Assembly (NCBI GenBank): GCA_002633005.1
Contig: NMRA01000085.1
Location: 475,464-539,463, forward strand
Origin: Phoronis australis
Taxonomy: Eukaryota; Animalia; Phoronida
DNA length: 64,000 nt
Direction of reading: 5' to 3'
The number at the start of each line of letters is the position of its first letter. Position 1 is the stretch's first letter. The position numbers and the translations under genes were made by a program. Shown one piece after another: positions 4,831 through 60,600 of this stretch. A model generated the notes under the pieces. That model was not told the DNA's origin and did not search any database. It saw only the letters and a list, made by a program, of their open reading frames with translations.

Positions 4831-4939
4831 TGATTTGGATGCTGAATGGACCAGTTTCAGCTTATCCTAACATTAATCTTGTTTTCGTACTCTGGTATTC
4901 GTGAATGCACCAACTTGTGGATACGTTTCCCAGTCGACT

Positions 4940-10050: not shown

Positions 10051-11101
10051 AGACTTTATAATACTGAAGGAGTTCTGGTCGCGAAAGTTCTCCGCTTCCC
10101 GGAACAATTCGTCGAGACGGACCAGAGTATACTGAGGCCTCTAGCAAATTCGTTCAATTGATTTTGTCTGGATTCGACTACTGTTCCATGTGTGTTGATA
10201 ATCTATTCAAAAAGCAAGTGCACCCTGTGTTTTAGCAGTGCCTAATTTCCATACACGTTGGTGTCCAGTATGGAACAATTGTTATGTTTTATGAGATGTT
10301 TGATCCAGCTGCACGTTGAAGGGACATGTTTTTTTTAGAGAAACTTGGTAGTAAAAATAAACTCGCAAAACGGGTGACTTAAGGAGTGTTTCACTGTTTC
10401 GAAAACATCGCTTCCGATTGAAAATTTATAGGTGCATTTCATTCCTTTTTGCGATCTTAACGTTGATGTGACCAACTTTACATTAAATAATTTGTTCTAA
10501 ATTTTCTCTTGCCAATATTTGCCTCTTGGCCTCTCAGTAAACTGCTCCTTACCTCGCTCGGGTTACCCAATCCCGTCAAACGAGATGGCATTACAACGCT
10601 ATTTAGCTCGATGACACCACAAATAATGTTTCGGGCTGAAAATCATACTTTGTGCCTTTTAGTATCCTGTTTCGTTATTTACACTTAACGCTGTGAATAA
10701 AAGTAAACCACATCGTACAGAAAATTTCAGACGCATGCTCAACTATTTGTTTACCTACTTGATCCACCGAAATGGGTCCAAACCAGTCTTCTTGGCAATT
10801 CGAACCTAAGCAATAAAGCCATATGTTCTGAAACCGTGAACAACCTACACAGCATGGACTATTAAATCAGTCGCGGTACTCGTTTTTTTTCTTATTTTCG
10901 TGTCCTGTCTTCGTGGGAAAAACTTCTATAAACTGGACAGCAAATTGCCTCACGCATTCACTGATTCAATTTCTTCCAATTTAAATTGGATTTAGCCAAA
11001 ACATAAGGTACGCTAACATTTTGAGTGTTTTAAAAGTCTTGTACGAGATTTCCCTCGATAACGATCCTTTTTACCTATTGATCTAGGGCTACTTGCGAGA
11101 A

Positions 11102-11174
11102 ATGAACCATTTACTTGCAATCATGGTTTGGATTGCAAGCGTGTTCAGCATGTCACCTACGGTCAAGTCCAAGG
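11102..11174 (+). CDS. Gene A coding exon 1, signal peptide MNHLLAIMVWIASVFSMSPTVKSK
   Basis: Acceptor TCTAG|GG at 11086/11087 (same context as the first coding exons of B and C), hydrophobic N-terminus, strong phase-1 donor G|GTAAGT. Confidence 0.7.
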
Positions 11175-14100: not shown

Positions 14101-17100
14101 GCCTATACATGTACACTACACGTTCTTGTACATGTAACAAGAAAATTTTAAGGGCATCCTCCAATATGCAAACACGTACGTTTTAATCGGATCGTCGGAT
14201 CCTCAACATTGATTTGCACTTGAACTGTACCTGTGTTTCAGGCAACTGTTCTCGCCCTCGAGTGTTAAACGGTCACGTGACAGGGCCCACTTTTCTGCCA
14301 GTGGGTAGCAACGTGACGATCACGTGCGAGGTCGACTTTCTTCTCGAAGGTGTTTCCGTAATCACGTGTGGACAATCCGGTATTTGGGACTACGCGATAC
14401 CTCGTTGCCTGGGTAAGATTGCACAGGAACGTCTCGTACATGTAATTTATTATTAGAACAACAATCAGGCCATCTTCCTATGAGGTCACAGTTGTACTGT
14501 ATGTAAAACACACCACGGTTGATAAATTCTTTGGTATTCAAAATGTCACGAAGAAACTATTACACTGTAAATAATGAAGGTAAAAATATTTGATTGGCTC
14601 TTACTGAAAAATCTGCACTCTTAGAGGAAGAGGAGCATATCTGTTCAAAGTTTTTTTCAGCCTAAATTTGTTACATATATTTCAGATAGTAAAGCTTTCG
14701 GATTGGACGTAAATCGATGTATTTGCCATGTCAATAAATGCCGCGAGTTAATGATTGCCTTGTGTTGCAATGCAGACCAAAAAGAGTGTGTTAAGTTGAA
14801 AACGTATCCATGTAAATATGAATATGCGCCATGTGCGGCTATCCAAGTTTCGCTGGCAAAATGACTTCTGATGAGTGCAATCCCGGTGCTATGCTTGCGG
14901 AATATTTTTTTTTACCTCATAGCAAAGAAAATCGTATGCGCAAAACAACTTTGCTCTAGTCTTTAAAACATTTTATTGCTCACAAAATGTCATCACCATT
15001 GTTCAACAAGTCGATTGCTCATTTTGCTTGTCTTTTAGTCGTAGCCAAATGTATAACTTAAGAGATCATTTCAGAAAAACGCGGGCATAAGTCAATTGAC
15101 CTACACGGCCTCAAGTCTATGGGCCAGTTTCGAAGACCAGTGGCCCATGCTAACCGTTTGCCCCTTTCGTTTCCAATTTAGCTAGCTGGTTGGCGCTATC
15201 TAAGCAATCACAGCGCCTCAATGAAATTATTTTTCAGCCAATGACGCGAGGCGCGCTGTTAAAATTATTCCTGATAACACACATGAAATGAGTCCTTTGG
15301 GTCTTGCACGTGCTTTACAATGCGGCGCACATTCAAGAATAAATGTACGCCTATGTGGCTTGCCTCTGCTCACAGTAACAACTCTGACGATGCTCAAGTA
15401 TTCATGCTCGAAGGAAATGCATTAAAGAAGGTGCAGTATTAATGAGAGAACTTAACGACATTATATCCGCTTTCAGGAAAGTGTCCCTTGTTCAGTGTCG
15501 ACAGAGGGGCGATTTATAGAGTGAGGCCACAGCGCGAAGACACTTCCTCATTCTACCCCGGTGACGTTGCCAAAGTCATATGCCAGAGAGGATATATATC
15601 TTCCATAAACTACGACCACATCTATTGCCAAGACGGTGGAAACTGGACCGACCAACCACACTGCATGAAGCTAAGCCGTACGTTAATGTCACACCTCAAG
15701 GTCAAGCCCCTTACTAGATCTGTTAGGGAACGGAAATACTAAACTGGCGAGATATTAACTGCACTGGCTCTGTATATGTGACGAACACAATGAGCAATGC
15801 TCCTGCAAACTCTTAGGATAGGATCTGCCTTGTTGCACTTACACAAGCATTGTCGAATTCTCCCAACAGTACGAAAAACAACCTGTTCAGGTTACGTACT
15901 GTAGGTCCATATCATAAAAGATTGTATATTTAGCCAAATTTCAACAGAAATATGAAACTCAACTCAGAAAAATTACATAATTTTCTTTAACAGAAGAAAG
16001 TCTGTAGAGTTGACTTTTAATTCATACTAAGAAATCCTTCGTTGGTTGGGTCACGTGGCCATGTGTTTGTAATAAAAGTTAGCAAACATGGAAGGTATAT
16101 TCATAACAAACCAACGGCACACACGACCAAATTCCGTTTGACGTTCAACATGAAATCCCCGTTGCAGGTTTCCAAATTATCATTTCGGTTTCGTTCTATG
16201 CAACTACTGTCTTTTTCATTAAAATCGTAGTAGTCTGATTGAGCAAAATTGGATCATTTTAAAACCGAAGATAACCTAATTTGGACAAGGTCCTGCTCAA
16301 GGCAAACGTCTTTAAATTATGATTTGAGAAGTGGCAGATACACTGTACTATAAACAAATCTACACTGTCAGATCAACGTAGCAGCTCACCGACAACGCTT
16401 TTTATAGGAAAATAAAGTAATAGATTTGCGCCAACTGACTGTTAGGATCATCTGGAAAATATTCTTTTTGCTGAAGGTGGTATATCTCTTACTTTTAACC
16501 TCATTAAATATTCTTCAACAAACAGACAATGGGTCACATGTGTGTCTTGGGTGGCTGCGGTAACAGTCGCTATAACCCGACTTTCCTTTTTGAGCTCCTG
16601 AAGAACCTCTGGTATCGAAAAAGTGGCACGCGCATTGATCGATTGTGAGAGTTCTGATCAGCCTCACAGTCTATTGCGCCAGACGCAGTGTCAGATGTTT
16701 GGGTACGGAGACGACGATAAGAGCGTAGAGTTGGTGGGACGAGCTTTTAAACCCGTAACATTCATAACTTTAGACTTTTGGAACCGCTCATCAAAAACTT
16801 GTACACCGTTGACAATTTTACAGTTTAATAAAGGTGCTGTAAACCTGTAAACGAGGCAGGAGTTCAGTCAGATTTTTGTCTCTTTAAGATCACTGATCGT
16901 TATGAAACTGATCTCAAAATGGGACGAAAATCGTTTACGCATTCAATTTAAATTGCCGAAGAATTGGATGTAATTCCTTTGTCGTACTTGTCTAACCGAA
17001 TTTCTGAATTAGATCAATAAAACTGTTTTCGTTATTTAACTTGTTTTTCGCTTACCTTTGTTACGTACCGGTACTTGAGTGCCGATGCGCATAGAGACTT

Positions 17101-19668
17101 ACTTTTAACTAACAGCACAGAGTAACCAATGAAGTTCTAATGACTTTCACAGGGGAGACAAATGAACCCAACATGCAACGGGAAACGAATCTGTGGCCGA
17201 TACCTATGACTGTGGCTCTGACCTTCATCGGGGCTTTGCTGCTGCTGGCTTTGTATAGGCATCAGCACATTCAGAAAATAAATGACATCCTGGAAAGAGA
17301 GAGGGAACTACGCATACAGTTAAAGAAAGCCGTCGTCAACGTGTCTAACATGGAAACTGCTTTAGACGAGTACGAGAAGTTTTGCCAGTTACACTCAGGA
17401 CACGTCACGCTCGCTTCTGACTTGGTTGATGCGGCAAAAGACCAGTTACGCCTTTGGAAAGTAGAAACACCGAAAGCCAAGCCAGTTTCCGTCGTGAATG
17501 TAGGAACAATCAAAGTCAACGCGCCAACCTCTCTAGAGTCAGCGGCATCGTCCAAGAAGTCGTTGATTACGGAAAATGTTTGTTCACAAGTAAAAGCTAA
17601 AGAGATAGAGTTGAAGACTGCGATAGCTGTAAGCGACATAAATGTTTTGAGTTCCTTATTGGCGAAATATGTCGGATTATGTGAATGGTACGAGATTCCC
17701 GCCAAAAAGAACCTTGTGAGCGAAACAAGGAGAATCCTTAAAGTTGTGAAAGATGAGTCTAGAATGAAAGAAAATATATCTAAAGCAATTGAAAACAAAG
17801 ACATACAGCAACTGAAACTTGAAATCAACATTTATTGTAACTTTGCAAAAGAAAACAGTGTTTGGGTTACTGAAGACAAAGTCTTATTACAGCAAGCAAA
17901 CACACTAATTCGCCTTAACGACCATGATCGGCAGGAGAACGAGAAAATACGCAAACAACAGTTGATCCTAGAGCTTGATATGGAAAGGGCAATGTCCTTG
18001 AGGGATCAAAAGGAAGTAGCTAGCGCATTGTCAAGATACCTAGAGTTTACTGAAGCTCACAACCTAGCGAGATCAACTGTTGAACCACCGGTATCAAAAG
18101 TGGAGCATTGCTTGCTGATGGTTCAGATAAATGACGCTTTGCAGGAAGGGATCAGGGATAAAGACTTGGCTGTGTTAACCAAGGCATTAAACAGAGCTCA
18201 GCAAAATGGCATAACATCCGATTTAGAAATGATAGTCAGTAAAGCGAAGACTCTGTGCATCAGTCTAGAAAAAATAAATGTGTTGAAAAATGAACTCATG
18301 TACATTGAAAAAGAGGTCTTTCTTGAACTTCAAACGCTCTCTTGTCCATCTGAAGATGTGCAGGATATTATTAAAGCAACTGCTCTTGTTATTGGATTAA
18401 GTGAATCTGAAACAAGCGACTGGTCAACTTGTAAAAATATTTTGAATCCTTTTCCTGCAGCTAATTACGTTGGCCTTTATAAAAGCATACGTGACTTCGA
18501 TGTAAAAAGTCTCTGCATGGACACAGTGTCGGTTTTAAAATCGATTCTGCTTCGCGTCAATGAGAGGAAAGCTACGATAGTTAACCGCGCTGCTTCAGTT
18601 CTTCTCAGATGGCTGGAGGCATTGTGTATCATATTTTTGGACGAGCAGCTTGTCAGTGAAATCCAGCACGGGACCTTTGAAATGGCAGATAGTGTCGTGC
18701 AAGTTAATGAAATGGTTGTTGGCAAAAATTTGATTGGAGAAGCTCAAAAAATGTTGAGTCCGAAGGACAAATTAAAAGCAGAAAACGAAAGCAATGAGAG
18801 AGGTTGCGAGGTCAACAGCTCTACGGCTGAAGGACGCCAGGACGCAGAAACGCTTAAGGAGAATTACCAAAGGGATACTTCGGAAAATATGCAAGAACGT
18901 GGCAATGAAGATATCGATGACAGGTACATGAAGAAGAAATACGACTCACTAGTAAAAAGGTTAACAACAGCAATAGAATCTAGTGAGGTGGCTGAAATTA
19001 CGAAGTGGCTTAAGAAATATGAAAAATTCTGCATGCGTAACAAAATTTCAGTCAACGAAGCACTAATCAACTCAGCATCGGAAAAAATCGTTCACATACA
19101 GGCAACTATACCGGCCAAAGTATCAGGGCTTTCCAGTGAAGAAATGAAGCATTTGAAGCGAAAAGAAACATCATTGATGTCTAAGCTCAGGAACGCCATA
19201 ACAAAAAATGACTGGGACGCAACAAGGTTAGCCTTGAGTAAGTATGAAGAACTCGTTGAGGCAAGCAAAGGAGACTTGATTTTAGATCAAAGTTTGGTGG
19301 ATGAGTCAAAGAAAAAACTTTTGAAGGAACGCGACCATGTCGTAGACGGACATAAATATGCGTCAAAAGAGATAGATGGGAAGTCCGGTGACAGATCAGT
19401 GCAGCCACAGATAATTGTAGTCGAAGCAAAAGTCAAAGAAGAGCCAGCGCAGCAGTCGAAAGTGTCTGATCTCAAAGAACACAAACAAGTTAAGATAGAC
19501 GAAGCCCATGAAAGTGTAAAGCTCGAACTGCGGCAGTCCATCGATAAGCAAGATAGGGATGGGATTAAAAGAAAATTAAAAAAATACTTGAAATTTGGAG
19601 GCGATTATACAGTACATTTGGATGAGCACTTGGTCCGGGAAGCAAAGAAGGTGCTAAAACAATTATAA
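11102..19668 (+). CDS. Gene A (spliced model): type I membrane protein, signal peptide + 2 sushi/CCP + TM + helical-repeat tail with dynein MTBD-like domain, 986 aa
   Basis: join(11102..11174,14242..14412,15477..15677,17153..19668). All junctions are GT-AG and phase 1; total 2961 nt, in frame to TAA. Confidence 0.8.
14242..14412 (+). CDS. Gene A sushi/CCP exon 1
   Basis: tttcag| NCSRPRVLNGHV..ITCEVDFLLEGVSVITCGQSGIWDYAIPRCL |gtaag; four Cys plus conserved Trp; 171 nt, phase 1-1. Confidence 0.9.
15477..15677 (+). CDS. Gene A sushi/CCP exon 2
   Basis: tttcag| KCPLFSVDRG..FYPGDVAKVICQRGY..IYCQDGGNWTDQPHCMKLS |gtacgt; 201 nt, phase 1-1. Confidence 0.85.
17153..19668 (+). CDS. Gene A terminal exon: TM (~17191-17256) + ~800-aa cytoplasmic tail
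   Basis: 842-aa ORF with branch-point-like TTCTAAT and ttcacag acceptor in phase 1. TM IPMTVALTFIGALLLLALY followed by RH. About 8 copies of a ~50-aa repeat; MTBD-like segment at 18295-18633. Confidence 0.92.
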
Positions 19669-32700: not shown

Positions 32701-35164
32701 CCAATAAAGAAAAACATTAAGCTAGCGCTTTTTGTCACGAAATAAACAGATTAACATGCTCCGTTCCCAAAATCTCCTAGACATCTGCATTTTTGACAAG
32801 AAGTGAACTAGGCCCGAGCCATCAAATTTTATCCAAACCTTTAAAGAGGCTATTACGCGCGCGTTCCTTCACGAACCGAATTTTTTATTTAGATACCGCT
32901 GTCAGATTGGTCTTAACTTGTTCACCGCAAAGATGACAAGACAATTCTGGGTTTGCAAAGACCATTTTTCGCTGAGACTACGCACGCTCGGTTCATAAAG
33001 TTACACACCCGAGTAAAACCAATGGGTCAGGGCTGGCTTTAAATTAACACAAATTTGATTAGGGAGCAGTTTGAGACAGATTTCATAACGGTAAGCGTTA
33101 CATAGAAAAAATGTGTTTTTTTTGTGATGGGGGAAAGTTTATGGTCCACTTCAAAATACACCAACACAAATTCTTGAAACTGGAAATGTGACGTAGTGTG
33201 TCAGTTCCAAAAACTACTACCTGACCGAGTATTAAGCCGCGTTTTCTTGCTTCCCCGTGCTAATACATGTGCCCTTTGACCTGAGTAATGATGCCCGAAG
33301 CAGCTGATAGCATTGATACAGTGCTTATAAGGTTATCTCAAACCTTATTTAGTAGCATCTATTCTAACTCGTAAATGAAAAACTAAGCTTTGTCAAGTAG
33401 CAAATGTATATATTTTCTGAAAAAAGAAGAGGAAATATAAAATATGTTTTGTATTTACGTACTATTATTATTATTACTTAAGCACCTTTTCGACGGAGTC
33501 AATATTTCGTTTATGAAAGGTACATTCATAGCAAAAGAACCCTCGCTCGATTTTAACGAAAGCTTTTTTCAATGAAAACTTGACCAGCTACCTCAAAAGC
33601 GCTGTTAGGAATTTTTTATCAATCTTTTTGTTTGGTTTCTATTACAAATCAACTCCCAAAACGTAAAGTATTTTTTGTAAACAGTAGAAGTCATATTCGT
33701 CTGTGTGACTTTACGCAAAAACTGGACCTGTATATCGAAAATCCTGACAGCGTTGTTGAGATTTGTGAATAAATATTTAGTTTCGAAAGTTTCAGAGATA
33801 TCCACCAAGCCATTTTCGAGAACTCGTAGTCCTAATTTCAACTAAAGTTGCTTTGCCGAAGCCGAGAAAACTGGGACGAGTGAAAATATCTAAGTCTTTT
33901 GTTAATTATTCGGTTAAAGCTTGTTTTCAGTCAATATAATCTATACATGTCTTAACCATGTTAGCTATTTCAACATTCACTTGCAATGTCAACTGAATTT
34001 GCGGTGCGTAATTAACTTAATTACCATGAATGGTACCGTCACCAGGCACGAGGTGGGGTCAAATGTTGCTGTTGTTTGACCTTCTTAAAAGTAGGTCACA
34101 GTTCATTGTTATACACATAGCCTGTACACGTCACGTGCCGCGAGACTGAGACGAAACCAAGTATGAGGCGGATAACAATAATAGAGTCGATGGTTAAGGC
34201 ATGACGTTAGCGTGAGCTCGAATCAAAATCCGTCTTGTCGTTGTTTTTCCCGGCACCACTCTATCATAACTTCATCTCGTTGACTCAATATTATGGTGAC
34301 TTGGTGAATGAAAGAACTGATCAGGGTACTTACGAAGCTGCCTCTGTACCTAGAGGGAGATTCAATTTTAGTGACAGCCCACTAACCTTTGACCTCGGAT
34401 AAGTAGTAAACAAGTAATTGTGCGGTCCCAAGGTAGCTCTGCTAAATCTTTTTTTCTTGCTACACGATGTATGTTATGTGCTTGAATTTCACTGAGAATG
34501 AAAATAAAAATAAGATTAGATATTTTGCTAGATACAACTAAAATATTGTAGAAATGACCAATTTTTGTGAATAAGGATTGAGATGACTTTGATGTTTTTT
34601 TCTTTTATAGTGACTCGTAACCTCACTTAGCAGTGGTTTCCTTTGTGTAAAATTATTGATGTCATTTTATAGTGTAGAGCGAGTCACTATATAAAACCGT
34701 ATCCGTTATCTTGTGTGTTAGCCTCCGCGTGTTGAGAGAAATTGATGTTCCCCTTTTCAGAAAACCTCGCCTCTAGCACACCTTCCGATATTGTCTGGAT
34801 TATTCCGCTGGTAGTTTTGCTGCTTCTCCTGCTCAGTATCGCAGCCATCAGCTTCTGCAAGTACCGTTCTGAACGCGGCAATCCTTTTTCCGGGAGACAG
34901 GCTATACTAGAAAACCACGATGTGCTGCGACATAAATTGGTTGAAGCCGTCCACGTCGGCGCGTGCATTGAGCCAGCCTTGGAAGAGTACAAAAAGTTTT
35001 GCATGGACAATTTGCTGGTAGTCCGCATGGATGTGGAGTTGTGCAAGGAGGCGAATGAAGCGATAGAAGAGTTAAAGGAAAAAAATGTTAAACGAGACAG
35101 TGGCAACCATGACACGCTTTCGGTTGCCACCGTATACCCCGGTACAGGTGGTGGCATTGATTGA
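23663..35164 (+). CDS. Gene B (spliced model): signal peptide + 2-Cys exon + UMOD/GP2/OIT3-type D8C(D10C)-like domain + 2-Cys linker + 1 sushi + TM + short tail, 411 aa
   Basis: join(23663..23720,24630..24716,27204..27374,28796..28900,30208..30375,32067..32129,32432..32611,34761..35164). All junctions GT-AG, phase 1; 1236 nt in frame. The first seven exons each have a same-length paralogue in gene C. Confidence 0.85.
24630..24716 (+). CDS. Gene B 2-Cys exon YDPCEFLNDENSGLSTYNKVCQNETDDG
   Basis: atttcag| ... T|gtgagt; 87 nt; paralogue at 44285-44371. Confidence 0.8.
24797..26215. mobile_element. Foldback non-autonomous DNA element with ~650-bp inverted arms (CAGTGGCGGATCTAGG termini, hAT-MITE-like)
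   Basis: 24797-~25454 is a close reverse complement of ~25585-26215 around a ~130-bp spacer. No coding capacity; no clean TSD seen. Confidence 0.9.
27204..27374 (+). CDS. Gene B D8C/D10C-like exon 1 (EKFCDQYLVL..RSTF..KSDQNLPE)
   Basis: Resembles the DPC.....L...WRST....CD..L start of the uromodulin domain; 171 nt, phase 1-1; paralogue at 47684-47854. Confidence 0.85.
28796..28900 (+). CDS. Gene B D8C/D10C-like exon 2 (WYIF..MPTENPITGCGTRHPAWMN)
   Basis: Matches the WYRF..MP....CGT..P.WLNG signature; 105 nt; paralogue at 48379-48483. Confidence 0.9.
30208..30375 (+). CDS. Gene B D8C/D10C-like exon 3 (TLPRPTEYNVSRTVCI..PC..IFVRNCG..AYFL..SAYCF)
   Basis: Matches the HP....G.V.R..C.....C....I.V..C...Y.Y.L.....AYC signature; tttcag / gtaag; 168 nt; paralogue at 51752-51919. 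Confidence 0.9.
30441..30548 (+). repeat. Imperfect (CA)n/(TACA)n microsatellite
   Basis: CATACATGTACGCACACACACACATACCACACACACATACATACATG..CATACATACAT. Confidence 0.85.
31492..31640. mobile_element. Short MITE-like element
   Basis: Imperfect inverted ends GGCCCAGTTGCATGAAAGTT ... AGCTTTATGCAACTGAACC. Confidence 0.5.
32067..32129 (+). CDS. Gene B 2-Cys linker mini-exon NYRPCQGNTSSETGFSPGCR
   Basis: tctcgcacag| ... G|gtaagt; 63 nt, phase 1-1; paralogue at 52611-52673. Confidence 0.85.
32432..32611 (+). CDS. Gene B sushi/CCP exon
   Basis: TCGKPRVINGRV..FLEGSRVLIDCKSGF..MTCSNSGWTPSSVECK; 180 nt; paralogue at 53071-53250. Confidence 0.9.
33331..34108. repeat. Dispersed repeat, inverted partner of 37801-38480
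   Basis: GGTTATCTCAAACCTTATTTAGT.. and ..CTTAAAAGTAGGTCACAGTTCATTG match the reverse complement of 37801-38480 along the whole length, with indels. Confidence 0.8.
34761..35164 (+). CDS. Gene B terminal exon: TM + one helical repeat + stop
   Basis: ccttttcag| phase 1. TM VWIIPLVVLLLLLLSIAAISFC; repeat LRHKLVEAVHVGACIEPALEEYKKFC..ELCKEANEAI. Aligns with 63213 onward until IEELKEK, then diverges and stops. Confidence 0.85.
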
Positions 35165-45600: not shown

Positions 45601-48600
45601 CTCACCAACGTGTTCCACGTCATTTCAATGACGTCAATTTGTGTCAACGGAAAAGTAAACTCGAGCTTCTGGAAAGGCGCTGATTTCTGATGTTTCGAGG
45701 AACAAAAAGTAAAAGAGATCCTTGTTTCTGAAAAAGCGCACAGGGTGCTTTATCGGTAATCCTCGGTAGTAGCATTAAAGGGGAAGGCAACCTTTTTCCA
45801 TGTCATTTTGAGCTAAAATAAGGTTGGTTGGTTATCCTAGACATATTTTCCACTTAATTACAGCTTTTCGTAATTTTATAGATTACTCGTCCGCTACTCC
45901 GAAAGTGACGTTTTAGGAGGCAATCATTTCGCGCCAATTTCTTTTCACATAGTCTGACTGTGAGAGCTGCCGAGTCAGTCATTGTTCTACCTCGGTTGTG
46001 TTAAGTTCCGTCGTCGTTTGCTTTCCTTTACTAGTCAGTCAACATGCCACACTGTTGCTGCGTACCAGGATGTACTAATTATCGGCTCACGCGCGCTTTG
46101 GGAGTATCTTTGCACCGCTTTCCGATGGATGACACACTTCGCCGTACTTGGCTCGTTCGTGTGAAGAACGCAGCGTTACCCGTCCACGCAACGTACAAAG
46201 CAGTGGAGAATTACGTACCGTGTGTGTGGAAAGCACTTTCTGCCGTCCGATTACGAAAGGGATTTGTACGCTGAACTGATGAAGGTCCTCGCGAAACAAC
46301 GTCTGAAGAAGGTTGCCATTCCGTCTGTGTTGATTCCCGGCAGTGCCCCGTCGCCACCCCCGAGAAGTGCGTATTTGAAGCGAGAAGCCTCGCGAGCTGT
46401 GGCCAGTACAGTGACTGGAGCCAGTGGAGGCACTTCATCTACTGTCACCCGTGCCTCCGAACATACCCCAGAGCGTGCAATTCCCTGGAACCAGTAGTGA
46501 TTCGCCCTGTGCTGTTTTCTCCAGCCCAGAGCCCTGCAGCGATATTGAGTAGTGGGAGTGATTACAGGCTCAGTTCTACACCCAGTGAAGAGGACAGTTC
46601 GTCTTCCAGTGAACAGATCGGTGAGCCAAACTTTGATAAGTTTATTGTGGACTTGTCTAAAGTGTTGGAGCTATTTAGAAGGTGCTAGGTGTGTGGCGAG
46701 CGAGTCACACGACACGATGTAAGCAGTTTGGGTGCTCAGGTCACCATCCAGTGGGAGTGTGTCGCGGGACACTCTGGCAAGTGGGACAGTTGTTCCTCTG
46801 TCCGTGGTGTGCCGGAGGTCCACTTAACCATGTCCAGTAGTGGCTTGGCCTCGTCGAACTCTGAACAGCACAAGCATTCCATTGAGGTAGGCATAACAAC
46901 GCACACAGTGTATTTGCACCAAGATGTGTCACCACGTCTGTCCTCAGTAGCCGCCTCGTTTCTCTCAACAGCTGCCTGTGCCTGTGCGTACTCTGCCTCG
47001 TTATACTCGGGCTCAAACATGTACCCACCCACTGAATGTCCGTGAAAAAATTCCTCGTCACCACTGCTGTGAACAAGGTCTCCGTCACTCACACTACTGT
47101 CACTGTGATACGGGTCACCGACTCCAGCCATTTTCAGCTTACAACACACTAAACAATCCCTAAATCCAACGTAGTTGAGTTCTCTACTAACCTATCTTGC
47201 CGCAGAATACTCGCCGATGGAAAGTGGTGGCGACAATTGTTGAAAAACAGCACAAAACAAAAGTAGAATAGAACAGATTCGCACGGTAAAGTCAACGCAA
47301 AACCAAGTGGCGGGAAACGCTTGCCTCCTAAAACGTCACTTCCAGAGTAGAGGACGAGTAATCAATAAAATTACGAAAAACTGTAATTATGTGGAAAATA
47401 TGTCTAGGATAACCAACCAACCTTATTTTAGCTCAAAATGACATGGAAAAGGGTTGCCTTCGCCTTTAATTTTGTAGTGCAGTTGGTAAGCCTACAAGTA
47501 CTATTGTTATCTATAATCAACAGTTTCAAATTGTTTGAATTTTAATATAATCCATGATGTTAAAATGATAAATGCATCCATAACAACAGTTGTTGTTGTT
47601 ATTTTTGTTGTCGTGGATGGTGTAGTCAGATATTTAATGTTTTGAGAATTGTATACATGTATATGTACATTATTCCACGCCAGTACAGGGAAAATTCTGT
47701 GACCAGTACTTGGTGCTAGGACATCACAATCCACCCCTTATCAAAGTGATTCACCATGGCAACCCGAAATGGACGACACGAAGTACTTTTAACCAAAATC
47801 CAAGGAATGGAGAGCCACAGAAGCTCTACAAAAGTGATCAGAATCTACCAAGAGGTAATTTACGGTGTCCCCTGTAGGAGGAGCTGTACCACGCACAGCA
47901 AGTCGAGTATGTCAAGTAGTAAATAGCCCGCAGTCACTGCTACCGAAAATGATCGCTTGTTGATGTTGTGAGGTTGGTACCTGACATTTCCGGCTATTCC
48001 CATCAGACACAAAGAGTCGCCACCCATCAGACACTTAAATTGAAGACAACAGATGCTTAAAATCATACCGGAGAAATAAAAAATACGCAGCCTGGGTAAT
48101 TTTTCACGTACTCAAGCAGGAATGACTGAAATTTTGAGATTTTTTAGTATATCGAATAGTACTGTAGAAAGCCACCAATAATTCCTAAGTATGATCTCAA
48201 GTACACTTGGAAAAAGTACTCCAAAATTCATCGACGCTCTCCTCACATCACAGTCGGTTGGGGTGTTCCGTCTATACAGTCATGCAGCGCACCCCGCCTG
48301 TCAATACTGTGAAAACCACACGATTTCCCTCCGCGTCAACTCGTGCTTAGTTTAATTCGATGATTTGGTTTTTTTCAGCCTGGTACATATTCATGAAGCC
48401 CGGAAGTCAAGTCCAGTCGTTGAACATGCCCACGGAAAATCCGGTCACCGGCTGTGGGACACGTCATCCGGCATGGATGGACGGTAGGGTTCAGAATCCG
48501 TGTAGCGTGATTTATGCATTGGAAAATTAACCACATTACCCATAATGCTTTAGTTGAGCAAGAGACATTGTCATGGCCTTGACATTTGAAGCGCTACTCA

Positions 48601-51600
48601 TGTTATGGTCATAGATAGACGCACGCTGTGAAGGAACATAAAAATTACGAGACTAATTGCGACCAATCAGTGAACAGAGGAAAAGATACTGGAGCACCTA
48701 CGCGAATATCATCTATGAAGCTTCAAAGGGTTCTTAAACGAGTACCTTTCTGTCTGTTGAAATGTTTAACGCATACTTTTGATAAATCAGCGCGTAGTAT
48801 TGCGTAGTCAACGCACTGAATTAATAAGTCAACACTGAATTGGTTCGCAAACGATTAGCTGTCTGCTCTTATTCAACAGGCGTTGCGTAATATACGCACA
48901 CTTTTGCTTAATTAATTAACGCGCTGACATAATTATTCGTTATGTCCAATCAAAGACATGTTTACAGTCAGTACGCACCGCCGCGAGAAGGCAGCAACGA
49001 CGGAACATGGCCGCGGTGAAGGAGGCACAAAACAGTTTTCACAGGGTTTTGCCTATCAGAACACACGTCAATGGACTCTTCACCCTTTCTTCACTCTGTC
49101 AAAAACTGCATGCAAATAAAGAAAAGTTTTGAGTTATTTCACATCACAAGCCCTACAGATGAGCACAGAAACTTTACTCTTTCTTGTATTTTTGACCCTT
49201 TCACTCCCACTGAAAACCAAGCTAGTAGACTAAGAAAAATAGGGGCAAAAATGCAAAATCGGCACTTTTCACACCAAAATCACCACTTCCCTGCCGATGC
49301 TCGACTAAAGCCAACATTAGATTATGAAAGCAAATTTCCCACCGATTTCACAAATGTGGTCCAAAAATACTGTCAACTAGCTTTTGCAAATCTGGCTACA
49401 TGAAATCGCAGCCAGTTTCTCAGTTGCTACACAGCAATGCACAAATGCTACAGGGGGCCACCATCTTGAAGAAGGGTGCAGCTACAGCCGAGCAAGTGGT
49501 CTTTTTTGTTAGTCAGCATGTTCACAAACACGAACAAAGCACACTCACTGAGCCAAAATGCAAAGCCTACTTACAAAATGCCCCAAACCTGGCCTACCCC
49601 AAAATTTTAATATTTTCGGAGTGCAAATTGGCCGAGGCCGCAGCCTAACTGTTCAGTGCCACCGAAGCACAATCTTCGAAACTGGCCTTGCAGGCATGTC
49701 TTCCCGGGCCGCCATTTTGAGATTTGAGAGCTCGGACGTGATTGGATCATGTGGACAGAATAAAAGTATGCGTTGAATGGGCAATTAATAGTACGCGTCG
49801 AATAACTGTAAGTACCCCTTGATTAAATAAATTAAGTGTGCGTTGAATAAACACATTCAATAAGCAGAAAGGTACTCGTTTAAGAACCCTTTGGCGCTTT
49901 ATAATCATCTGACATGTTCTCTCCATGATCCGGGAAGACACTACACAGGAACGATGCCTTTCTCGAGAGTCATCTGGCCTTGACTGTCACCTGCGATAAA
50001 GATAGTTTGTTGTCTTCGGCTATTGCCTATTAAATTCATGGGAACACCCATAGGGGGGCTCGGGGGCTCGAACGAGCCCTCCAATTTCGCGAATTGGGCA
50101 AAACGGTCCTCCTCAGTGAAACAAAAAGTCCGAGTAAACGAGACGAAAGTTCACAAAATCCACGGAAAGTCGGCGCGGATGCACGGTTCGTGGTCCGGTA
50201 TTTTTTCTAGTCCTCGTTGATTTCTTTTAGTAAAAGGTCTGCATATCGAAAAATTTGAGCCCCCCTATTCACCTATTTCACGAAAGCGCCATCTTCCCGC
50301 GCCATCTTTAAATACTGATCGAAAACGAGGCACACTGATAAAACCTCGTGAGTGATCATCAGCTGGCCATGGTGTACTGTGCAGTGCCTGAACGTACCAA
50401 TTCCAGTAATATCTCGTCGGTATCCTTCCCAGGGATATACTAAGCCACTCGCCCAGTCGCCAATGCGAGTAAAAATGGTGCTGGGCGAGTAGAAGTTGAC
50501 TTGCCGGTCGCCCGGTGGCGAGCGAATTTCAGAGCGCAAAAGCACTATATATCGTTTCCCAGATGAATATGAANATTTCACATCACAAGCCCTACAGATG
50601 AGCACAGAAACTTTATTCTTTCTTGTATTTTTGACCCTTTCACTCCCACTGAAAACCAAGCTAGTAGACTAAGAAAAATAGGGGCAAAAATGCAAAATCG
50701 GCACTTTTCACCCCAAAATCACCACTTCCCTGCCGATGCTCGACTAAAGCCAACATTAGATTATGAAAGCAAATTTCCCACCGATTTCACAAATGTGGTC
50801 CAAAAATACTGTCAACTACATGTAGCTTTTGCAAATCTGGCAACATGAAATCGCAGCCAGTTTCTCAGTTGCTACACAGCAATGCACAAATGCTACAGGG
50901 GGCCACCATCTTGAAGAAGGGTGCAGCTACATCCGAGCAAGTGGTCTTTTTTGTTAGTCAGCATGTTCACAAACACGAACAAACCACACTCACTGAGCCT
51001 ACATGCAAAGCCTGCCTACAAAATGCCCCAAACCTGGCCTACCCCAAAATTTTAATATTTTCGGAGTGCAAATTGGCCGAGGCCGCAGCCTAACTGTTCA
51101 GTGCCACCGAAGCACAATCTTCGAAACTGGCCTTGCACGCATGTCTTCCCGGGCCGCCATTCTGAGATTTGAGAGCTCGGACGTGATTGGATCATGTGGA
51201 CAGATTAAAAGTACGCGTTGAATGGGCCATTAATAGTACGCGTCGAATAACTGTAAGTACGCGTTGATTAAATAAATTAAGTGTGCGTTGAATAAACACA
51301 TTCAATAAGCAGAAAGGTACTCGTTTAAGAACCCTTTGGCGCTTTATAATCATCTGACGTTCTCTCCATGATCCGGGAAGACACTACACAGGAACGATGC
51401 CTTTCTCGAGAGTCATCTGGCCTTGACTGTCACCTGCGATAAAGATAGTTTGTTGTCTTCGGCTATTGCCTATTAAATTCATGGGAACACCCATGGGGGG
51501 GGGCTCGGGGGCTCGAACGAGCCCTCCAATTTCGCGAATTGGGCAAAAAGGTCCTCCTCAGTGAAACAAAAAGTCCTAGTAAACGAGACAAAAGTTCACA

Positions 51601-54600
51601 AAATCCACGGAAAGTCGGCGCGGATGCACGGTTCGTGGTCCGGTATTTTTTCTAGTCCTCGTTGATTTCTTTTAGTAAAAGGTCTGCATATCGAAAAATT
51701 TGAGCCCCCCTATATTTTAGGCTGAAATTAGTTGTTGTCGCGTCATTTCAGGAACTATCCCATTACCGGCAGAGCACATAGTTTCGAGATATGTTTGCAT
51801 CAATAACCTTCGACCGTGTAGCTCAAAGTATAACATTTCTGTACGAAACTGCGGTGATGGAATCACGGCCTATCTTCTCACGCCGTTGACACATGACAGG
51901 TTGTCGGCGTACTGCTTTGGTAAGAAAGAAAATCCTGCATTTTTGTGTGACATGTCGACGAAGTAAGCAATGTTGTCAATTTTTGTTCTCTAGGTATCTA
52001 GACTTCACAGTTAGTGGTGGAGCAAAACGAATGTCTTTACACCATAGAGACATGAGACTCTAAGTGAGTGCAGGGGCGGATCCAGGATTTTGAGTTAGGG
52101 TGGGGGGGCAGGGCAGAGTATTAGCAAGGATTTTGCCTGTCAGAAATTCGCATTCCCTACTGCCAAATGGAATCCAGTAGAATTTTAGGGGGGTATGGCC
52201 CCCTTGGCCCCTCTATAAATCCACCGACTGGTGTGTGCCTTGAATAGCACCTTCTTCATGGATTTAGTGGCGCATCCACACGTTACTCACTACCAAGGTA
52301 CTGCATTAACATTCAAATTAATAGGAGACATGGGACAGGGAGTGATAAACTGAACTTCCATCTGGTTGAAATACTAGCCCTACTAAAATAAAGTGATCTC
52401 TACCGTTCGTCGTGGCGGTGCTGTTTTGAGTGACCTTTGTACACATGACGCGTTTGGTTCACTTACACTTCCAGTAAAAAGGATAATAATGTGGTCTGAA
52501 TTCAAATGTCCTGGCTTATTTTCCCAAAAAGTGTCATGAAAAACGTGCTGTGTTGTATATGTATACTGTAGTAGTCTGGAAATGACCTGGTCATTCAAAC
52601 TCTCGCACAGGTCAATACAGGCCCTGTCAAGGTAACAGCTCGTCATCTACAGGATTCGATCCAGGCTGCCGCTGTGAGTATCGCGTACAGTATGCATGCA
52701 GTTATACGGCTCTAAATAGCGCCAACTCACAAACAAAAATACGTTGTCGGTGAATGGACATCTAACGTTTCATATTGGATTGCCTAAGAATTTCAAGATT
52801 CCAGCTTCATTTGTGTCGAGATATTGAGATCCAGGGATTTCGAGATTTTGTGATACGTGTTCTTTTATGTCCCTGTTGCAAAACCTATCAAGCGCGCGTC
52901 ACAAGCGTTTGAAATAGTTCTTTTTTCACATTAAGTGTCGGTCGATGAATTTGGACGTCCGTTCGCCTTTATTCACATCTACCTGTCCAGATTAGACCAA
53001 GTCGATGTTTGTAGTGAACCCGTGCAGTTCTTACGCGTCTGTATGAATTATTTCGCACCTCTTTTTTCAGCCACCTGTGGAGAGCCTCAGGTAATAAATG
53101 GTAGAGTGCGGGCCGGTGGACGCGGGTATGGTTCGCGGTTCTTGGAAGGAAATCTTGTTACAGTCGATTGCTATCGTGGCTTCTTTGCACCGAACACGAG
53201 AATGGCCTGCAGCAACTCTGAGTGGACACCGAGCAGTGTGAACTGTAAAGGTACAAAGTCTGCTGTGCAGGGCAAATATCCTGAATCCACGCTTCAATGA
53301 AGATATGTAAAAATACTTGCTTGCATAGGTAGAAGATGAGCAGCTGTGTTTTATAAACTGCCACTGTCTTAGCACTGGTAAATCAGTGCTTCACCTGAAG
53401 CCTTGCTTCTGTTTCCTTTAGACTCGGAACCAGTCGGTAAATACGCACTTACACTCAAAGGACGAAGGATGGACTGGTGAATGAATCCTTTCTTCCTACG
53501 TCTTGCAAATCAAACGATTCCATTAGTAGTTGCAACGCCCACTAAAGACAAATATCGTGTGCGTGCTTTTTTGCCATAAAATGGTCGATTTGCGTGGTCC
53601 GCGGATAATATTACCGACGAATCGACAACATTCCTGATCTGGTAGCGTGGACAAATTACACCAACCCCGGAGTCAGGAATTTGCTCCCAATTTCACTCAG
53701 TCTTGTTGATTGGGATAGATGAATGGAATTTATAATTTGAAGAATACGTGTGGTAAAGGGGTACCTTGGGCAACAGGTGGGGATTTTTGAGGGGACATAG
53801 TGTTAACGACCGTCCATCTGTAACTCAGTACTCCGCACTGAAGTTGTTTTAATATTTTAAGAAGGAAGTTTTAAATTGTAGTCATATTCTGTGCTTAGGT
53901 GTTGGTGAGCAACTCAGTCCAGGCGCCAGTAGGATTTGATGACTTTGACCTCGATTTCAAGGTGTCATTATAAATCAAGATTTTGGCTAAATATTATTTC
54001 GATGTTTATCTTGGGCAAGTGCATATGCCAGTCAGTTTTGGGGTCCTTAACACCACGCAGTGTGTGATATCTCAAGAAGGAACTTTTACCATTGATTGAC
54101 ACGAAGTCTCAAAAACGTTGTTACATTTTTTTAATTATGAGTTTTATTTCTTAAAAGTCCTATTTTTATAGTTAACCCCTCATTCAATAGTGGAGCCTTT
54201 TTGATACAACTCCTAACAGTAGATGGCACTGCACAAAGCAGAGTATCCAAAAGTTCTCCATGAATCCGATCAGCCATTTCTGAGATATGATGTCTAAAAT
54301 TTAGCCAAATGTGGACATTTTCAAGGGTCCTGCATGACATAGGGCCGATCTGATACTCTGAGCAGTAACTTTTTGGTTCACAGCTTCACACTTCCGGTTT
54401 ACACAATTCATATTTTTATTAAAAATGTCCTTCTAAAATGGACTAAACGGGTTAAAATGTTTTTACTACAGCATACATGTATGTATTGCAACAAATTGAC
54501 CAAAAACGCTTTTAAGTACCTCCATTTGCACGCGTATAAAATAAGTCATTTTAGCTATGAAAAGTCGCTTGGTTAACTTTTTTGGAGTCAACGAATAGGG

Positions 54601-57600
54601 CTAGGTCTTGCTTCTAGAACTGACTCCACTCGGTATTTGCACCCTCTGTTACGTACGAAAATACTGCGTAATTCATTTCCCCCAAACTCTACCGAGAGGG
54701 AGTCGACTAAATCTACCAACACATTGTGCGGATACTCGATATTTTTGTCTTGTAACGGAGGGGACAAGTGTTGTGGAATCGCCCAAATGTGATACCTGTC
54801 TTTGCTATTTCATTTGTTGCGCCTTGTACTCTTTACTTTCATGTAATCTCATCGTGTAGTGTCGTAGACGTCAGTCACACTATCATGTCGCTGTTACACT
54901 CATTTACGTGTACACTTGCGCTAAGTAGATAATCTGGTCAAAGCTACAACCCTCCCTGTCTACTTAGCTACGCTACTTTGTAACGTACGTGACTTTACTG
55001 TACTACAGTGTAATATTGCGCTCTTCAATAAGCGGGCTCAGGTCTCCCGGCAAAGTTGTAGGTCACTATGTCGCGCACTAACAAAATTTATTTTACTCGT
55101 TGTGCTCTCACAGTTGTTTTCATACTATCTAAATCTCATTCTAGTCATCTGCACTGACTTAGAGGTAAATAATGGTGAGGTGCAGTACAACGCCTATCCC
55201 GGATATCCAGTCTCCGTTGCTGTCGAAGGACATGTTGTTACCGTACGTTGTAATCCAGGAGGGACCAGAACAGCTACGTGCCAGTCGGACGGCACGTGGT
55301 CTCCACGACCTCGCTGTGCAGGTCAGCAGTGCAGCTGAAGCTAAATGTACAGCGATTGTTGTGTCCACTGTGAAGTGTGCCTGTTGCGGCAGATCTGCTA
55401 CTTGAATAATGCAAAACAATAAAATTTTATTGCCGTAAAAACCTAAGTGGCTAGCGATGGGGATGCGTTACAAAACCTCGCCAACAACGCTTATCAGGCG
55501 ACAACCTATATCGATGGCATCAACTCATGTCGTAACGACGTATGCAGAGTGACTAGCTCTTTGACAGCATTCGTGACGTAACCTGTGCTTCCGTATTCCA
55601 CAGGTGGGTGTGATGCTCCCACTATCGCTAACAGCAGGCCATCACGTGGTTACCCGTTTTCTCCTGGCGACGTGGCTGAAGTGCTTTGTGTTGAAGGATC
55701 CTTCCTTTCCGGCTCTCCGTTGATTACATGCCAAGAGGACGGCAGCTGGTCTCCCCAACTACCAGCATGTATAGGTAATACAACTATACACCCATCAAGG
55801 GTTTCAGAAACAGAACATTGTCTAACTTATGTTACTTCCAAGAGTAATCGAATAGTTTGGTGTCTAATACATTCAGAATTGATGATCAAGACTGATCGCT
55901 TTGCAGGCCGGTGCAGACGTCCCGCAATTCGAAACGCTGTGTTAAGCAGCACGACATACTTCTTTGAAGTTGGTGAAGGGGTTGAGGTCAGGTGCAAGTT
56001 AGGGTACGTTCTTGTAGGCAGCTCAACTATAACTTGTGGACCACGCGGGACCTGGACATCTGCACTACCATCGTGTAAGAGTAAGTCCGGTCGTTCTCGG
56101 AATGCGGTAGCTAGCCCTGATGCCCATACATGTATGTTTGTTCTGATAGCTGCTGGTGTAGTCCCCTGTTGATCCTGTGCAGTGATGCGACATTTACTTA
56201 AAGTGCGTAAGTGTACCCGTCATTTGCTCGTAATTTACAAGAAATTGAGAACACAAACATAATCCATATGTTTATGTTTTCAGTTGGAAATTTCTGTTAA
56301 CTTGGTATCTTATTATTGGATTTTGTTTGATGGCAAGGTAATATGGTTTTCAAAATACGAATAAAAAAGTCTCAAAATGATAGACTTAGCAATTTGGATA
56401 AACTGTTTCAGAAACATGAAATGTTAAAAGGTGTGTTTAAGGCGCTTTTCAGTGGAAAGAATAGGTTTTGCATGTCATCTATGGTTAAAGTTCGATTTTC
56501 TGACTATCCTAAATAAATGTTCAAGTTAAACTGATGTTAAATTCCCTGGGCTCTCAGGCTTCACTTCGGAAGGGCCAATGGCGATCCGAATCATTCCCCG
56601 CTAGTTTTCTTTGCATACGCTTGTGACTGTGTTTGACATAGATGGAGTCATTGTGTACGTAAGCTTGTAGCAATTTAGAATATTATTTGCCTTTCTCTGA
56701 GTTTTTTCATTAATGGTATGGCAGAGCTCTCGAAGAGTGTAGGAGTTCCATTTCACCGATTCCCAGTGGTTGGAAAAATCAGATCTACACGACGAATTGT
56801 CTCACAAACGAAGTTGACGGGAAACGGTTCGGGCCATGAATGTCACTTCCGGGATGTCCTACTTACATGTGTACAGATGTTAAAAACAAAACAACATTTC
56901 CACCCAATTCCCTGAAACAAAACAATGCCCTCTAACCCTCGACAACCCCTAAAAGTTTGGGTGGAATTTTGATAACTTCTTTCGAAGTCTGTAAAACGGG
57001 CAAGCCTGTAGAACCATAATACCTAATCTGTTTTTAGTTAATTTCTGCTTTCATCATTCAACATGGGCACCGAAGATGCATTAGCAGGTGACACGGCTAA
57101 GTATGGTTGAAATCGTCAAATCAAGGTTTAGTATCCTTTTGAATAAGAGCGATAATTTAAAATGCATGAAAAGAATCTTACGGTTAACTCTTTAACCGGT
57201 TGAGATTGGGTAACTTGACCGGTTTACGTACCTCAGAATCTGCCGGTTTAGATCAAAGATGCCTTGCTGATGTCGGTAATCAAATCGCCCCAGGCTGCTG
57301 ATGTTATTGTTCTCTCGATAATGAGGTCCGTCGTTAACACATTGGGAGCGAAAATAATAATTTGATATTTTCGATTTGGAAGTTTGAAAATGACATATTT
57401 GAACAGTTCGTGAAAAGCACACGTGATCAGGTCGTTCAATTTTGAAAATTACACAAGAAATGTGACTTCAACAACCTAAAGCATTTATTTAATGTTGCAA
57501 TCCTACGCTCCTCATTAATCCTGCTGGATGTGCAACATAATTGGGCCAATTACCAAACCAAGAGGCAGCAGTTGGATTTTGAGGTAAGCCAAGTGTCATC

Positions 57601-60600
57601 GTATAATTCGTGACTTGTGCGACGAACCTCCTAAACTTATCTAGGGTAACTAGAAATCGTAATTTGTCTAAACATTGGTTGCCTGACGCTTTAAAATCTG
57701 TTATTAAAGGGACTATACGCCCATCTTCCGTCCAAGAGTCGAATTTCCGAGGTCTAATCTTGTATCTTACTCAGCTGACAAGTGATTTATGGGTTTGCTA
57801 AGAACTGACAGTTCGTTATTCATCGAGATCATGCATGCTCGACTCAACATGACACGCTGTGACAAGTCAGCGGTGTAGAGTGTCTGTTCTTTCAAAGCCA
57901 TGATATCATCCCCAATTTGGCCAAGGAATTATCATTTTGTTAACGGTCTAAATTGAAATTTAACTAGTGTACGATGTATAACTGGTCTTTATTGATGTAC
58001 GCTCGTTAATTGAGCTGTGTACACAAGTCTGACATTTGTGCATCAATCATCTGAAAGCGATTTTGGGATTATCTCTTCAAGGTGCCTCAGTTTATTTTCA
58101 CGTACGTGTAAACGCTTACGTATGCAGCGCGTTGCTTGACGTGTGTGTTCCTGATAGAGCACGTGTAAGCCTATGTGAACACGTTCTGCAGTTCTGTTGT
58201 GAATTAGCGCTTCCCCTTTACAGATACATGTAAAGAAGTCAAGGTTAATAAAGGCAAACTTGTGGACGAAAACGGTGCACCTGTTGACAATGCCGTGGCT
58301 GGCCAAGTCGCTTATGTTTCCTGCCATGGAGGTCATGAAGCCGTCCCAGTTGACCGGACGACTTGCCTCGAAAACGGGCAGTGGACTGTGGTCCCGTCCT
58401 GTCACGGTAAATTTTTGAAGTCCAGGAACTCATCCGAGGTTTCGTGATGCTTGTTTTTGTGAGATGAAGAAAGACGAAACTTGTTGTCCAAATGATTTTG
58501 TGGCGGCAAATGTGAATCCAAAGGAAATGAGATTACTCACGAGCCTGAGACTTTAGTACCGCGTGGGTCATATTTTCTATGGCTCTCCCCACTTTCGTGA
58601 ATCTCTGTGCTACACGTCTGATGACTCTGTTTGTGGTTTTATACTCAGGCAGAGTGAGCCTTCAATTGCAACTTGTAAATTGGGTGTTATTACCGCTGAA
58701 ATGTAGCGTTTGAAACGCTTGGTGTGGTCATCCACGTACACTGTAGTCGGTGCAGAGTGTGTGGGCCTCAAATCAACTACGTTCACTTGCAGTTTATAAT
58801 TGAAGGAGCGCCGTCCTGCTGAGGACTCGATCGCTACGTACACTTGTTGGGACCAACACCTTATAAACGCCGTCGTCACGACGACTTGGGAGCCTTCCTG
58901 GGCGATTTCCTTCGAAAACCTTGCTTGCCCTATTTCTTACGCCATAACGCTCCTTTCAAAATATCATTCATTACTAAAACAGTGGATTTTAACGAAGTAC
59001 GCAAAAGTCGTTCTGTTTTCAGTAAAGTTAACATAGCCTTCCGATGCTTATTGCACTAGGTACGTAGGAAGTGCAGTGGAACTTGTACGTCGCTTTCTCA
59101 GAGGTCCATCTCAGTAGTCGGTTTCAATTAAAACTTTGGACAAGAGAATGTTTTTGTCGACATTTAAGTTCTATATTCTTTGCAAATTCACTTTTGAATA
59201 TATGCACGCTTTTTCAGAAATCCGTTGCTGGCAACCGCCTATAACTAACTCAGTCCTGGCTGGCTCCACACCGAAAACATACGTGTTCGGCCGAACTGTC
59301 CAAGTGAATTGTCTTCCAGGCTACGTCCTTATCGGGCCCAAACACATAATTTGCACAGTGACAGGAAACTGGACAAAACTGCCCACTTGTCAAGGTGCAA
59401 TTATTTCACACCTACATGAACGATGGGAATCTAATACAGAAGGTTTATCCAAAGTATTTTAAGTGTGGTCTGCACGCCACCTGATGGTCACATTTCATGA
59501 CCTAATGAACTAAGTCTGAAAAGATTGCTGCCTCGACTGGGACTCAAACCCTTGACCTTCTGCTGAGCGTACATATCCTCTAGTCCCCTGAGCCATCGGG
59601 ACTACTGGTCGAATGCAGAAATCCAATCAGACTTAGCATAAACTCATGAGTGTGTATGAATGTGCAAATCTTGAACCAGCCTGGGAACATCTATCACAAA
59701 TATTTTTAAATCTAGTCAATAGGTGGCGAGTAGGCCAGACTCGAAATTGTTTGCAATCTATATTTCCACGTCAGTTCAAGATTTACACGTTCATACGCGA
59801 AGGATTTAGTTACAAGAATCTTGCAAAGTTTTGTCTTTGAAGCTGTGATGCGCATGCATCCTACAAACTGAGAAATCCTATTATTAAATTTCTTTAAGTT
59901 GCAAGGGTTCGCTTGACCTTAATTGTGCATTTTGAACAGCATCAGCTGAGTCCAAAAAGCATAGTTGGCCCTGGTATCTGTTGTTAATTTGAAATTCACC
60001 TGTTCCTTTTTCAAAAAAGAAAATCCACCGGAAACGAGAAAAAATGTCGCGGGATTTGTTACACATTGCTGGCAAATCATGGCGTTTCAAACTCTGCTTA
60101 CCTTTCATTGCGTGTTTGTCTGCACCTTTTCAAAAAAGAGGAAAAATAAATTTATACGGACAGACGTTTTTAGTCGGTGTACGCTGGTCTCCAAATGAGT
60201 CCAGGATAAGACTTTTGCTTTAATTGGCCCAGCGACCTGAAGGCTGTGAACTGTGGTGGTCGGATGGAGCGTCATGGCTGTGGAGAACTGATGGCTACCG
60301 GACAAGGAAGGAAATGAAAATCTATCATGAAACTTGAAAAAATGTGGTCGTGAAGCGTGAAGTCCATAATTTCACACGCATAAAGCGGCGCATCCCAATA
60401 CACCCCCTCTAAACTGTGTTACACTCATTGTTACAGTTCAGGGTCCAAAGGAGAATGGGCATAATTCATCAAACACAAATAGTTCATCCTCTGGAACTTC
60501 AGGTGAGTAGATGTCTCCCACCGCTGTGTGACCTGCTACCATTGAATGTTTAGAACGTGTCTTCCACACATATTTAACTGAGTGATAAATGTATTTGATT

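Follow-up and report, generated by a model that had tools for sequence, protein, structure and literature searches.

Three neighbouring receptor genes, referred to here as A, B and C, lie on the + strand of a 64,000-nucleotide stretch of Phoronis australis DNA (assembly GCA_002633005.1, contig NMRA01000085.1, positions 475,464 to 539,463; hereafter "the window"), which is of animal type, with spliceosomal introns, and each of them finishes in one long exon coding for a transmembrane helix and a cytoplasmic tail. These tails hold 12 copies (eight in A, one in B and three in C) of a helical unit of 50 residues, which, judging by profile comparisons, is very probably related by common descent to a repeat at the base of a "motor-less" dynein tip module.

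Locus and gene models

The joints of gene A, as seen in raw RNA reads, are all GT..AG (8588>11087, 11174>14242, 14412>15477 and 15677>17153), and its spliced product of 986 amino acids (aa) comprises a signal stretch, two Sushi domains, a transmembrane helix and the tail. The model of gene B is based on splice sites and on similarity to gene C (63–72% identity between their exons), the RNA reads having been placed on genes A and C. Unless stated otherwise, the bit scores listed below come from a leave-one-out hidden Markov model (HMM), for which each copy was held out and scored against 1000 shuffles, with the number of shuffles matching it given as a fraction.

Gene A
8588, +, end of the non-coding exon (RNA joint to 11087)
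11087..11174, +, first coding exon, ATG at 11102, signal-peptide-like hydrophobic stretch (GT..AG joints on both sides)
14242..14412, +, Sushi 1 exon (Pfam PF00084, E 1e-9; RNA joints)
15477..15677, +, Sushi 2 exon (Pfam PF00084, E 3e-7; RNA joints)
17113-19668, +, stop-free frame, 851 aa
17153..19668, +, last coding exon, transmembrane helix and entire cytoplasmic tail (joint 15677>17153 in RNA sets X1, X2 and X3)
17200..17256, +, transmembrane helix, protein residues 165-183 (hydropathy peak 2.18 over 19 residues)
17296-17460, +, repeat A1, Tyr type, juxtamembrane (31.7 bits, 0/1000)
17599-17751, +, repeat A2, Tyr type (26.8 bits, 0/1000)
17758-17916, +, repeat A3, Tyr type (14.5 bits, 0/1000)
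17965-18123, +, repeat A4, Tyr type, standing where the relatives have their first repeat (11.9 bits, 0/1000; alignment with relatives)
18124-18270, +, repeat A5, no Tyr, corresponding to the relatives' second repeat (37.7 bits on the relatives-only R2 model described below, 0/1000)
18271-18660, +, motor-less dynein microtubule-binding domain (MTBD)-like domain with short stalk helices, between A5 and A6
18946-19104, +, repeat A6, Tyr type, behind the MTBD-like domain (35.4 bits, 0/1000)
19171-19335, +, repeat A7 (24.9 bits, 0/1000)
19513-19665, +, repeat A8, ending at the stop codon (35.5 bits, 0/1000)

Gene B
27204-27374, 28796-28900, 30208-30375, 32067-32129 and 32432-32611, +, ectodomain exons (GT..AG sites, open spliced frame)
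34761..35164, +, last exon: transmembrane helix, one repeat, stop, no MTBD
34910-35077, +, repeat B1 (18.7 bits with C1 also held out, 0/1000)

Gene C
47684..60502, +, ectodomain exons (RNA joints, Pfam, spliced frame)
63213 to beyond the window end, +, last exon (joint 60502>63213)
63359-63526, +, repeat C1 (17.9 bits, 0/1000)
63734-63889, +, repeat C2 (39.4 bits, 0/1000)
63890-64000, +, repeat C3, clipped by the window end (20.7 bits; 23.2 bits on the relatives-only R1 model)

No joint inside 17153-19668 is found among the RNA joints listed and the read depth there is continuous, so that the gene A copies do share a single exon, as had been stated in a preliminary description made from the sequence alone; the "array" spoken of there is, however, not one tandem array, as polar linkers of 16–95 residues and, between A5 and A6, the MTBD-like domain interrupt it. 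In X2 and X3 the reads over this exon lie on one strand, at a depth of 37–69; in X4 the depth is 0. Stranded reads from X2 and X3 are likewise found on gene C, whose last exon also has none in X4, and genes A and C are co-regulated by tissue or condition.

The gene B ectodomain consists of a uromodulin-D8C-like region (D8C_UMOD, E 0.04, below cut-off) and one Sushi-like domain, and that of gene C of a D8C-like region, one Sushi-like and five Pfam Sushi domains and a Ser/Thr linker. The cysteine-rich part common to both (27204-30375 in B and 47684-51919 in C) spans three exons, is 72% identical, weakly resembles uromodulin D8C at the same E value and has an insertion-like polar stretch in its first exon. 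A decayed second repeat behind the gene B stop codon was considered and rejected (DNA alignment score of 24, equal to the shuffle mean of 24; at most 5 bits with the HMM).

The repeat unit

The copies are 49–56 residues long (37 in the clipped C3), and 11 of the 12, when held out, score above all of their 1000 shuffles, the remaining one, A5, being matched by two; the weakest besides A5 are A4 (11.9 bits, its reversed sequence reaching 9.4) and A3 (14.5 bits, shuffle maximum 13.5). When the window was scanned in all six frames (1686 open segments), these 12 copies alone exceeded 10 bits. The repeat of about 50 aa that the preliminary description had reported from all three tails is thus real, its three quoted examples being A1, A6 and A8. 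Pairwise identity between the copies is 7–39%, the exception being B1/C1 (76%), and a DNA-level tandem repeat search returned 0 rows, no periodicity being left; by both signs, the copies are old. A2–A3 and A4–A5 abut, the remaining copies are spaced by the linkers, and all three receptors have a copy 12–20 residues past the membrane (A1, B1 and C1). The conserved columns are hydrophobic or helix-capping, and individual copies have net charges between -6 and +6. A tyrosine is kept in 11 of the 12 copies, A5, directly before the MTBD-like domain, being the lone exception, just as first described, and all 11 Tyr copies show a Y-x-x-F/L motif.

An AlphaFold2 model built on a 43-row alignment (pLDDT, the predicted local distance difference test, of 93) predicts three helices per unit, in agreement with the earlier suggestion, in a helix-turn-helix-loop-helix order, with helix 3 passing unbroken into helix 1 of an adjoining unit or into a stalk helix; that of A5 would continue into the stalk-like helix of the MTBD (model helix 96–120). 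With a single-sequence model (pLDDT 65), Foldseek found no match at E 0.001 and returned only generic helical rows. The expectation that the unit belongs to no known Pfam family held, as none of the 12 copies passes a curated cut-off, and none matches Pfam TIR, Death, CARD or DED at E up to 1. Among tetratricopeptide (TPR) families only TPR_Slam appears (20.7 bits against a cut-off of 35.2, for the whole open reading frame), the unit having 49–56 residues as opposed to 34-residue helix pairs; NCBIfam gave a best E of 0.034, with 1/12 members each, and a PDB sequence search gave nothing with a single query and, with the repeat profile, a de novo designed helical repeat protein as its best match (E 0.024). 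Other systems named for comparison are TIR/death-fold receptor tails and the three-helix bundles of MIT, BAG, Efb-C and spectrin repeats.

Relatives and origin of the repeat

A phmmer scan with A2–A5 plus the MTBD-like domain as the query, and therefore biased towards proteins carrying such a domain, gave 45 matches (19–31% identity, many of them fragments), of which 44 contain the MTBD-like domain, with at most two repeats preceding each copy of it. Names were looked up for 20 of the 45, and the named carriers of the module come from molluscs, a brachiopod, an annelid, a sea cucumber, amphioxus, a calcareous sponge and a ctenophore. Twelve of the matches are KY-like, having Ig-like_KY and in most cases a transglutaminase-like core as well. 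EF hands occur in one match and a CD20-like membrane region in another, and hydrophobic segments are present in four of the 45 and in three further relatives. No close orthologue was found, the best identity being 20–31%; a word-indexed search with the tail (468–1490 aa, 7994 candidates) gave no match, and a search for longer relatives (2413–5000 aa) yielded two true dyneins alone. In the ESM Atlas, an A2–MTBD query retrieved unnamed clusters, mainly of molluscs (0.90), along with an MT cluster (0.78), and an A6–A8 query had all scores below 0.8, which is no evidence.

In the KY-like proteins (PF23265 Ig-like_KY and PF01841 Transglut_core; e.g., CAH1267353, "KY", of Branchiostoma lanceolatum and XP_013404632 of Lingula), which are presumably "hillarin-like", two helical repeats are followed by an MTBD-like domain. 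This C-terminal module is about 20% identical to A4–A5–MTBD, its first repeat is aromatic at the Tyr column and its second is not, and it forms the protein end, with no more than two repeats per MTBD (44/44). Gene A differs in having eight copies flanking the MTBD, a signal–Sushi–transmembrane front and no KY or transglutaminase domain: neither Ig-like_KY nor a transglutaminase-like core is matched by Pfam in the gene A protein or in the 64 window segments scanned, and the 986-aa product leaves no room for them. Gene B has one repeat and no MTBD. Similar in layout are the amphioxus CD20/MS4A-like XP_066272931, the ctenophore single-pass EP00116_P002106 and the multi-pass P0069 and P0070, which share with gene A a membrane anchor, cytoplasmic repeats and an MTBD-like tip, but have different ectodomains, one or two repeats, a coiled-coil spacer and a terminal, better conserved MTBD. 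P0013, P0028 and P0045 (sea cucumber and calcareous sponge among them) combine an EF-hand-like N-terminus, a long charged coiled coil, two repeats and an MTBD-like tip, and are candidate calcium-regulated microtubule linkers annotated as "trichohyalin" or similar. In the KY-like P0038 (Branchiostoma belcheri XP_019621801), a CARD-like match (1067-1149, E 5e-5, 23.7 bits against a cut-off of 23.9) directly precedes the two repeats and the MTBD-like domain, so the module can adjoin a death-fold domain.

For a comparison independent of the window, models were built from relatives only, namely R1 for the first repeat (26 rows; of 42 relatives, 11 were removed by eye as lacking it and five by length) and R2 for the second (40 rows), P0014 (an artefact) and P0002 and P0007 (multiple modules) having been dropped from the alignment. 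With HHalign, the ten Tyr copies besides A4 align to R1 over 47 columns with a probability of 95.9, and to R2 with 88.0, and the Ala, Asp-cap and aromatic columns match. Ten of the 12 copies are matched by at most 6/1000 shuffles on R1, A4 is matched by 2/1000 on R2, and C3 is the copy closest to the relatives' first repeat. The Tyr column is aromatic in 17/26 of the relatives' first repeats (Phe in 13) and in 0/40 second repeats. By sequence, A4–A5–MTBD is homologous to the C-terminal module of many invertebrate proteins, A5 is likely the ancestral second repeat, which explains its lack of Tyr, and the Tyr copies are likely amplified first repeats; the Tyr difference would thus be inherited from two repeat types rather than being a special signal. 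A tree of the repeats agrees with this two-type origin, with weak support (3/75 branches starred). A4–A5 retain the relatives' arrangement of two or fewer copies directly before an MTBD-like domain, from which A1–A3, A6–A8, B1 and C1–C2 depart.

Our estimate for common descent is not put any higher because single-copy scores are low (A4 87/1000 on R1). Those low scores, the designed repeat protein among the profile matches and the poorly supported tree would fit another account, in which A5 alone (perhaps with A4 and C3) came from the MTBD module, and the remaining copies are an unrelated helical repeat alike by amphipathic pattern. That account is highly improbable, however, as the profiles align over their full length with the same Ala, Asp-cap and aromatic columns, A4 sits in the first-repeat position and has the same Y-x-x-F motif as the other copies, and the held-out A5 is still recognised by them.

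Still less probable is that the tyrosine is the functional point, each copy presenting a YxxF/L sorting or phosphotyrosine motif. The motif is indeed universal among the Tyr copies, and the relatives' first repeats have F at +3 in 0/26 and L in 8/26; the model, however, places the Tyr in the middle of a helix, in line with its hydrophobic face, and half of the relatives have Phe in this column, whereas such motifs normally lie in unfolded chain.

The stand-in for TIR or death domains that had been proposed at the outset, i.e., a homotypic signalling domain of immune-type receptors, is a very unlikely role, although every receptor has a juxtamembrane copy, the genes code for paralogous Sushi receptors, arranged in tandem and differing in domain number, and expression of A and C is seen in X2 and X3 but not in X4. 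The death fold has six helices and the TIR fold is alpha/beta, whereas the unit has three helices; no TIR or death-fold chain is among the 50 matches listed in each VIA search (lists filled by MTBDs, since the query included one); and the unit's ancestry in the stalk base, its hydrophobic or capping columns and the lack of a common surface charge leave the proposal unsupported. An adaptor-binding role keeps some plausibility because gene B retains one copy without an MTBD.

The MTBD-like domain and the possible role of the tail

In line with the preliminary description, the domain after A5 has the sequence profile of a dynein MTBD, and in the predicted (alignment-driven) model it adopts the MTBD fold between two stalk helices, i.e., the fold class of the dynein heavy-chain stalk tip (PF12777; PDB 3err, 5ayh, 6kjo and 8i3j). 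Pfam PF12777 (MT) itself has no match in gene A and matches 5/45 relatives below the cut-off. Unlike dynein, the gene A chain has no AAA+ motor ring or long stalk (no AAA Pfam match), its stalk helices are about 25 residues long, with repeats standing where dynein has its long coiled coil, and several basic tubulin-contact positions are altered; the helix-1 Glu is kept, and basic residues stand at neighbouring positions (equivalents of K3299 and Dictyostelium K3472). That this domain binds microtubules is somewhat doubtful. Non-motor MTBD-like folds on microtubules are present in the PDB (9ya2_L, from the Toxoplasma intraconoidal microtubule, 9fqr_Xl and 9e5c_2e); a guess that 9fqr_Xl is EFCAB5 was dropped, passages of PMC11779644 giving no confirmation.

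In the ancestral module, carried terminally by enzymes, EF-hand proteins and membrane proteins, the repeats would have formed a stiff base replacing the dynein stalk and ring and presenting the tip. Copying of the first repeat would then have taken place inside the one exon that codes for the tail, before the three genes became separate (because A1, B1 and C1 all lie next to the membrane), and would have produced a "beads-on-a-string" tail, in which abutting units are predicted to form a stiff rod where dynein has its long stalk and motor ring. Such a tail might tether the Sushi receptor to cortical microtubules, putatively in a passive way, because there is no ATPase ring to switch affinity. 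We give an even chance to this reading as a whole, i.e., that the amplified first of two stalk-base repeats serves as a spacer or scaffold letting Sushi receptors grip microtubules, and the spacer or scaffold role as the repeat's main function is, taken by itself, just as evenly poised.

Several observations weigh against it. A6–A8 lie behind the MTBD and most copies sit on long polar linkers, neither of which a rigid spacer needs. Gene B lacks an MTBD and has a single copy, and yet the ratio of nonsynonymous to synonymous substitution rates (dN/dS) of B1 against C1 is 0.26 (52 codons), as low as or below that of the ectodomain (0.32–0.47), although part of this constraint may predate the loss of the rest of the tail in B. 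Single copies score low on R1 (1.5–23 bits; 87/1000 for A4 and 12/1000 for A1), amphipathic helices are able to outscore shuffles even when unrelated, and, the search query having held the MTBD, repeat-only relatives escaped counting. The gene A MTBD is, moreover, the most diverged of 39 rows (mean identity 20.9%, against 25.8–40.9%), with Gln at the position of mouse R3306 (Lys/Arg in 40/42 relatives) and Glu and Ile at the equivalents of K3298 and R3382 (basic in 12/42 and 4/38 relatives, respectively).

The best rival keeps the same origin, but has the freed Tyr-type repeat serve as a docking domain for an adaptor, cytoskeletal or trafficking protein of the cytoplasm, with the copy number setting avidity and the gene A MTBD being a relic. 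It would accommodate the purifying selection on the lone B copy, the copies on flexible linkers on both sides of the MTBD, the divergence of the latter, and the gain by the window copies of both Y-x-x-F/L and about five residues between helices 2 and 3 (median spacing of 21, against 15–16 in relatives). The conserved polar surface columns, however, amount to two Asp caps and one Lys and one Glu at 5/10, no more; the net charge varies widely among the copies; and no partner is known. We regard docking as possible, if on the unlikely side. A combination of the two, in which the receptors grip microtubules via a captured motor-less dynein tip, the repeat number tunes the stalk length, and the freed stalk-base repeat is a tip-independent tail interaction domain (as in gene B), appears unlikely.

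The repeat and its parent module are without a Pfam family, yet, as judged from the proteins collected, they span sponges and ctenophores to amphioxus, and no description of such a module turned up in a literature search; a Pfam-type repeat model would annotate many "uncharacterized" or "trichohyalin-like" proteins. If the module binds microtubules, it would be a mobile, motor-free tether linking membrane proteins and KY-like enzymes to microtubules in invertebrates, and a natural ATPase-free MTBD with which to test how affinity is set without a motor. The receptors described here would show the module being rebuilt, with the repeat multiplied and detached and the tip diverged.

Other features of the window

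Upstream of gene A, a spliced gene at 1491-8400 (+; joints 1583>2562, 2641>3187, 3286>3966, 4033>5914 and 6038>6689) codes for a small product with several hydrophobic segments, tetraspanin-like by eye only, and is, unlike A and C, expressed in X2, X3 and X4. THAP-domain frames (E 3e-8 and 4e-8) and a P2RX7_C-like frame (E 0.004) at 43897-44076 (-), 46035-46271 (+) and 46736-47188 (-) are probably a transposon inside the gene C intron 44371>47684, and deep reads on both strands are seen at 45.4–47.4 kb. Also within a gene C intron is a 1.1-kb direct duplication (49136-50268 and 50575-51713, 97% identical). Four inverted-repeat pairs (24932-25457/25581-26107, 33330-34502/37229-38481, 45774-45945/47299-47470 and 62590-62758/62994-63156; 78–92% identical) are likely non-autonomous transposons.
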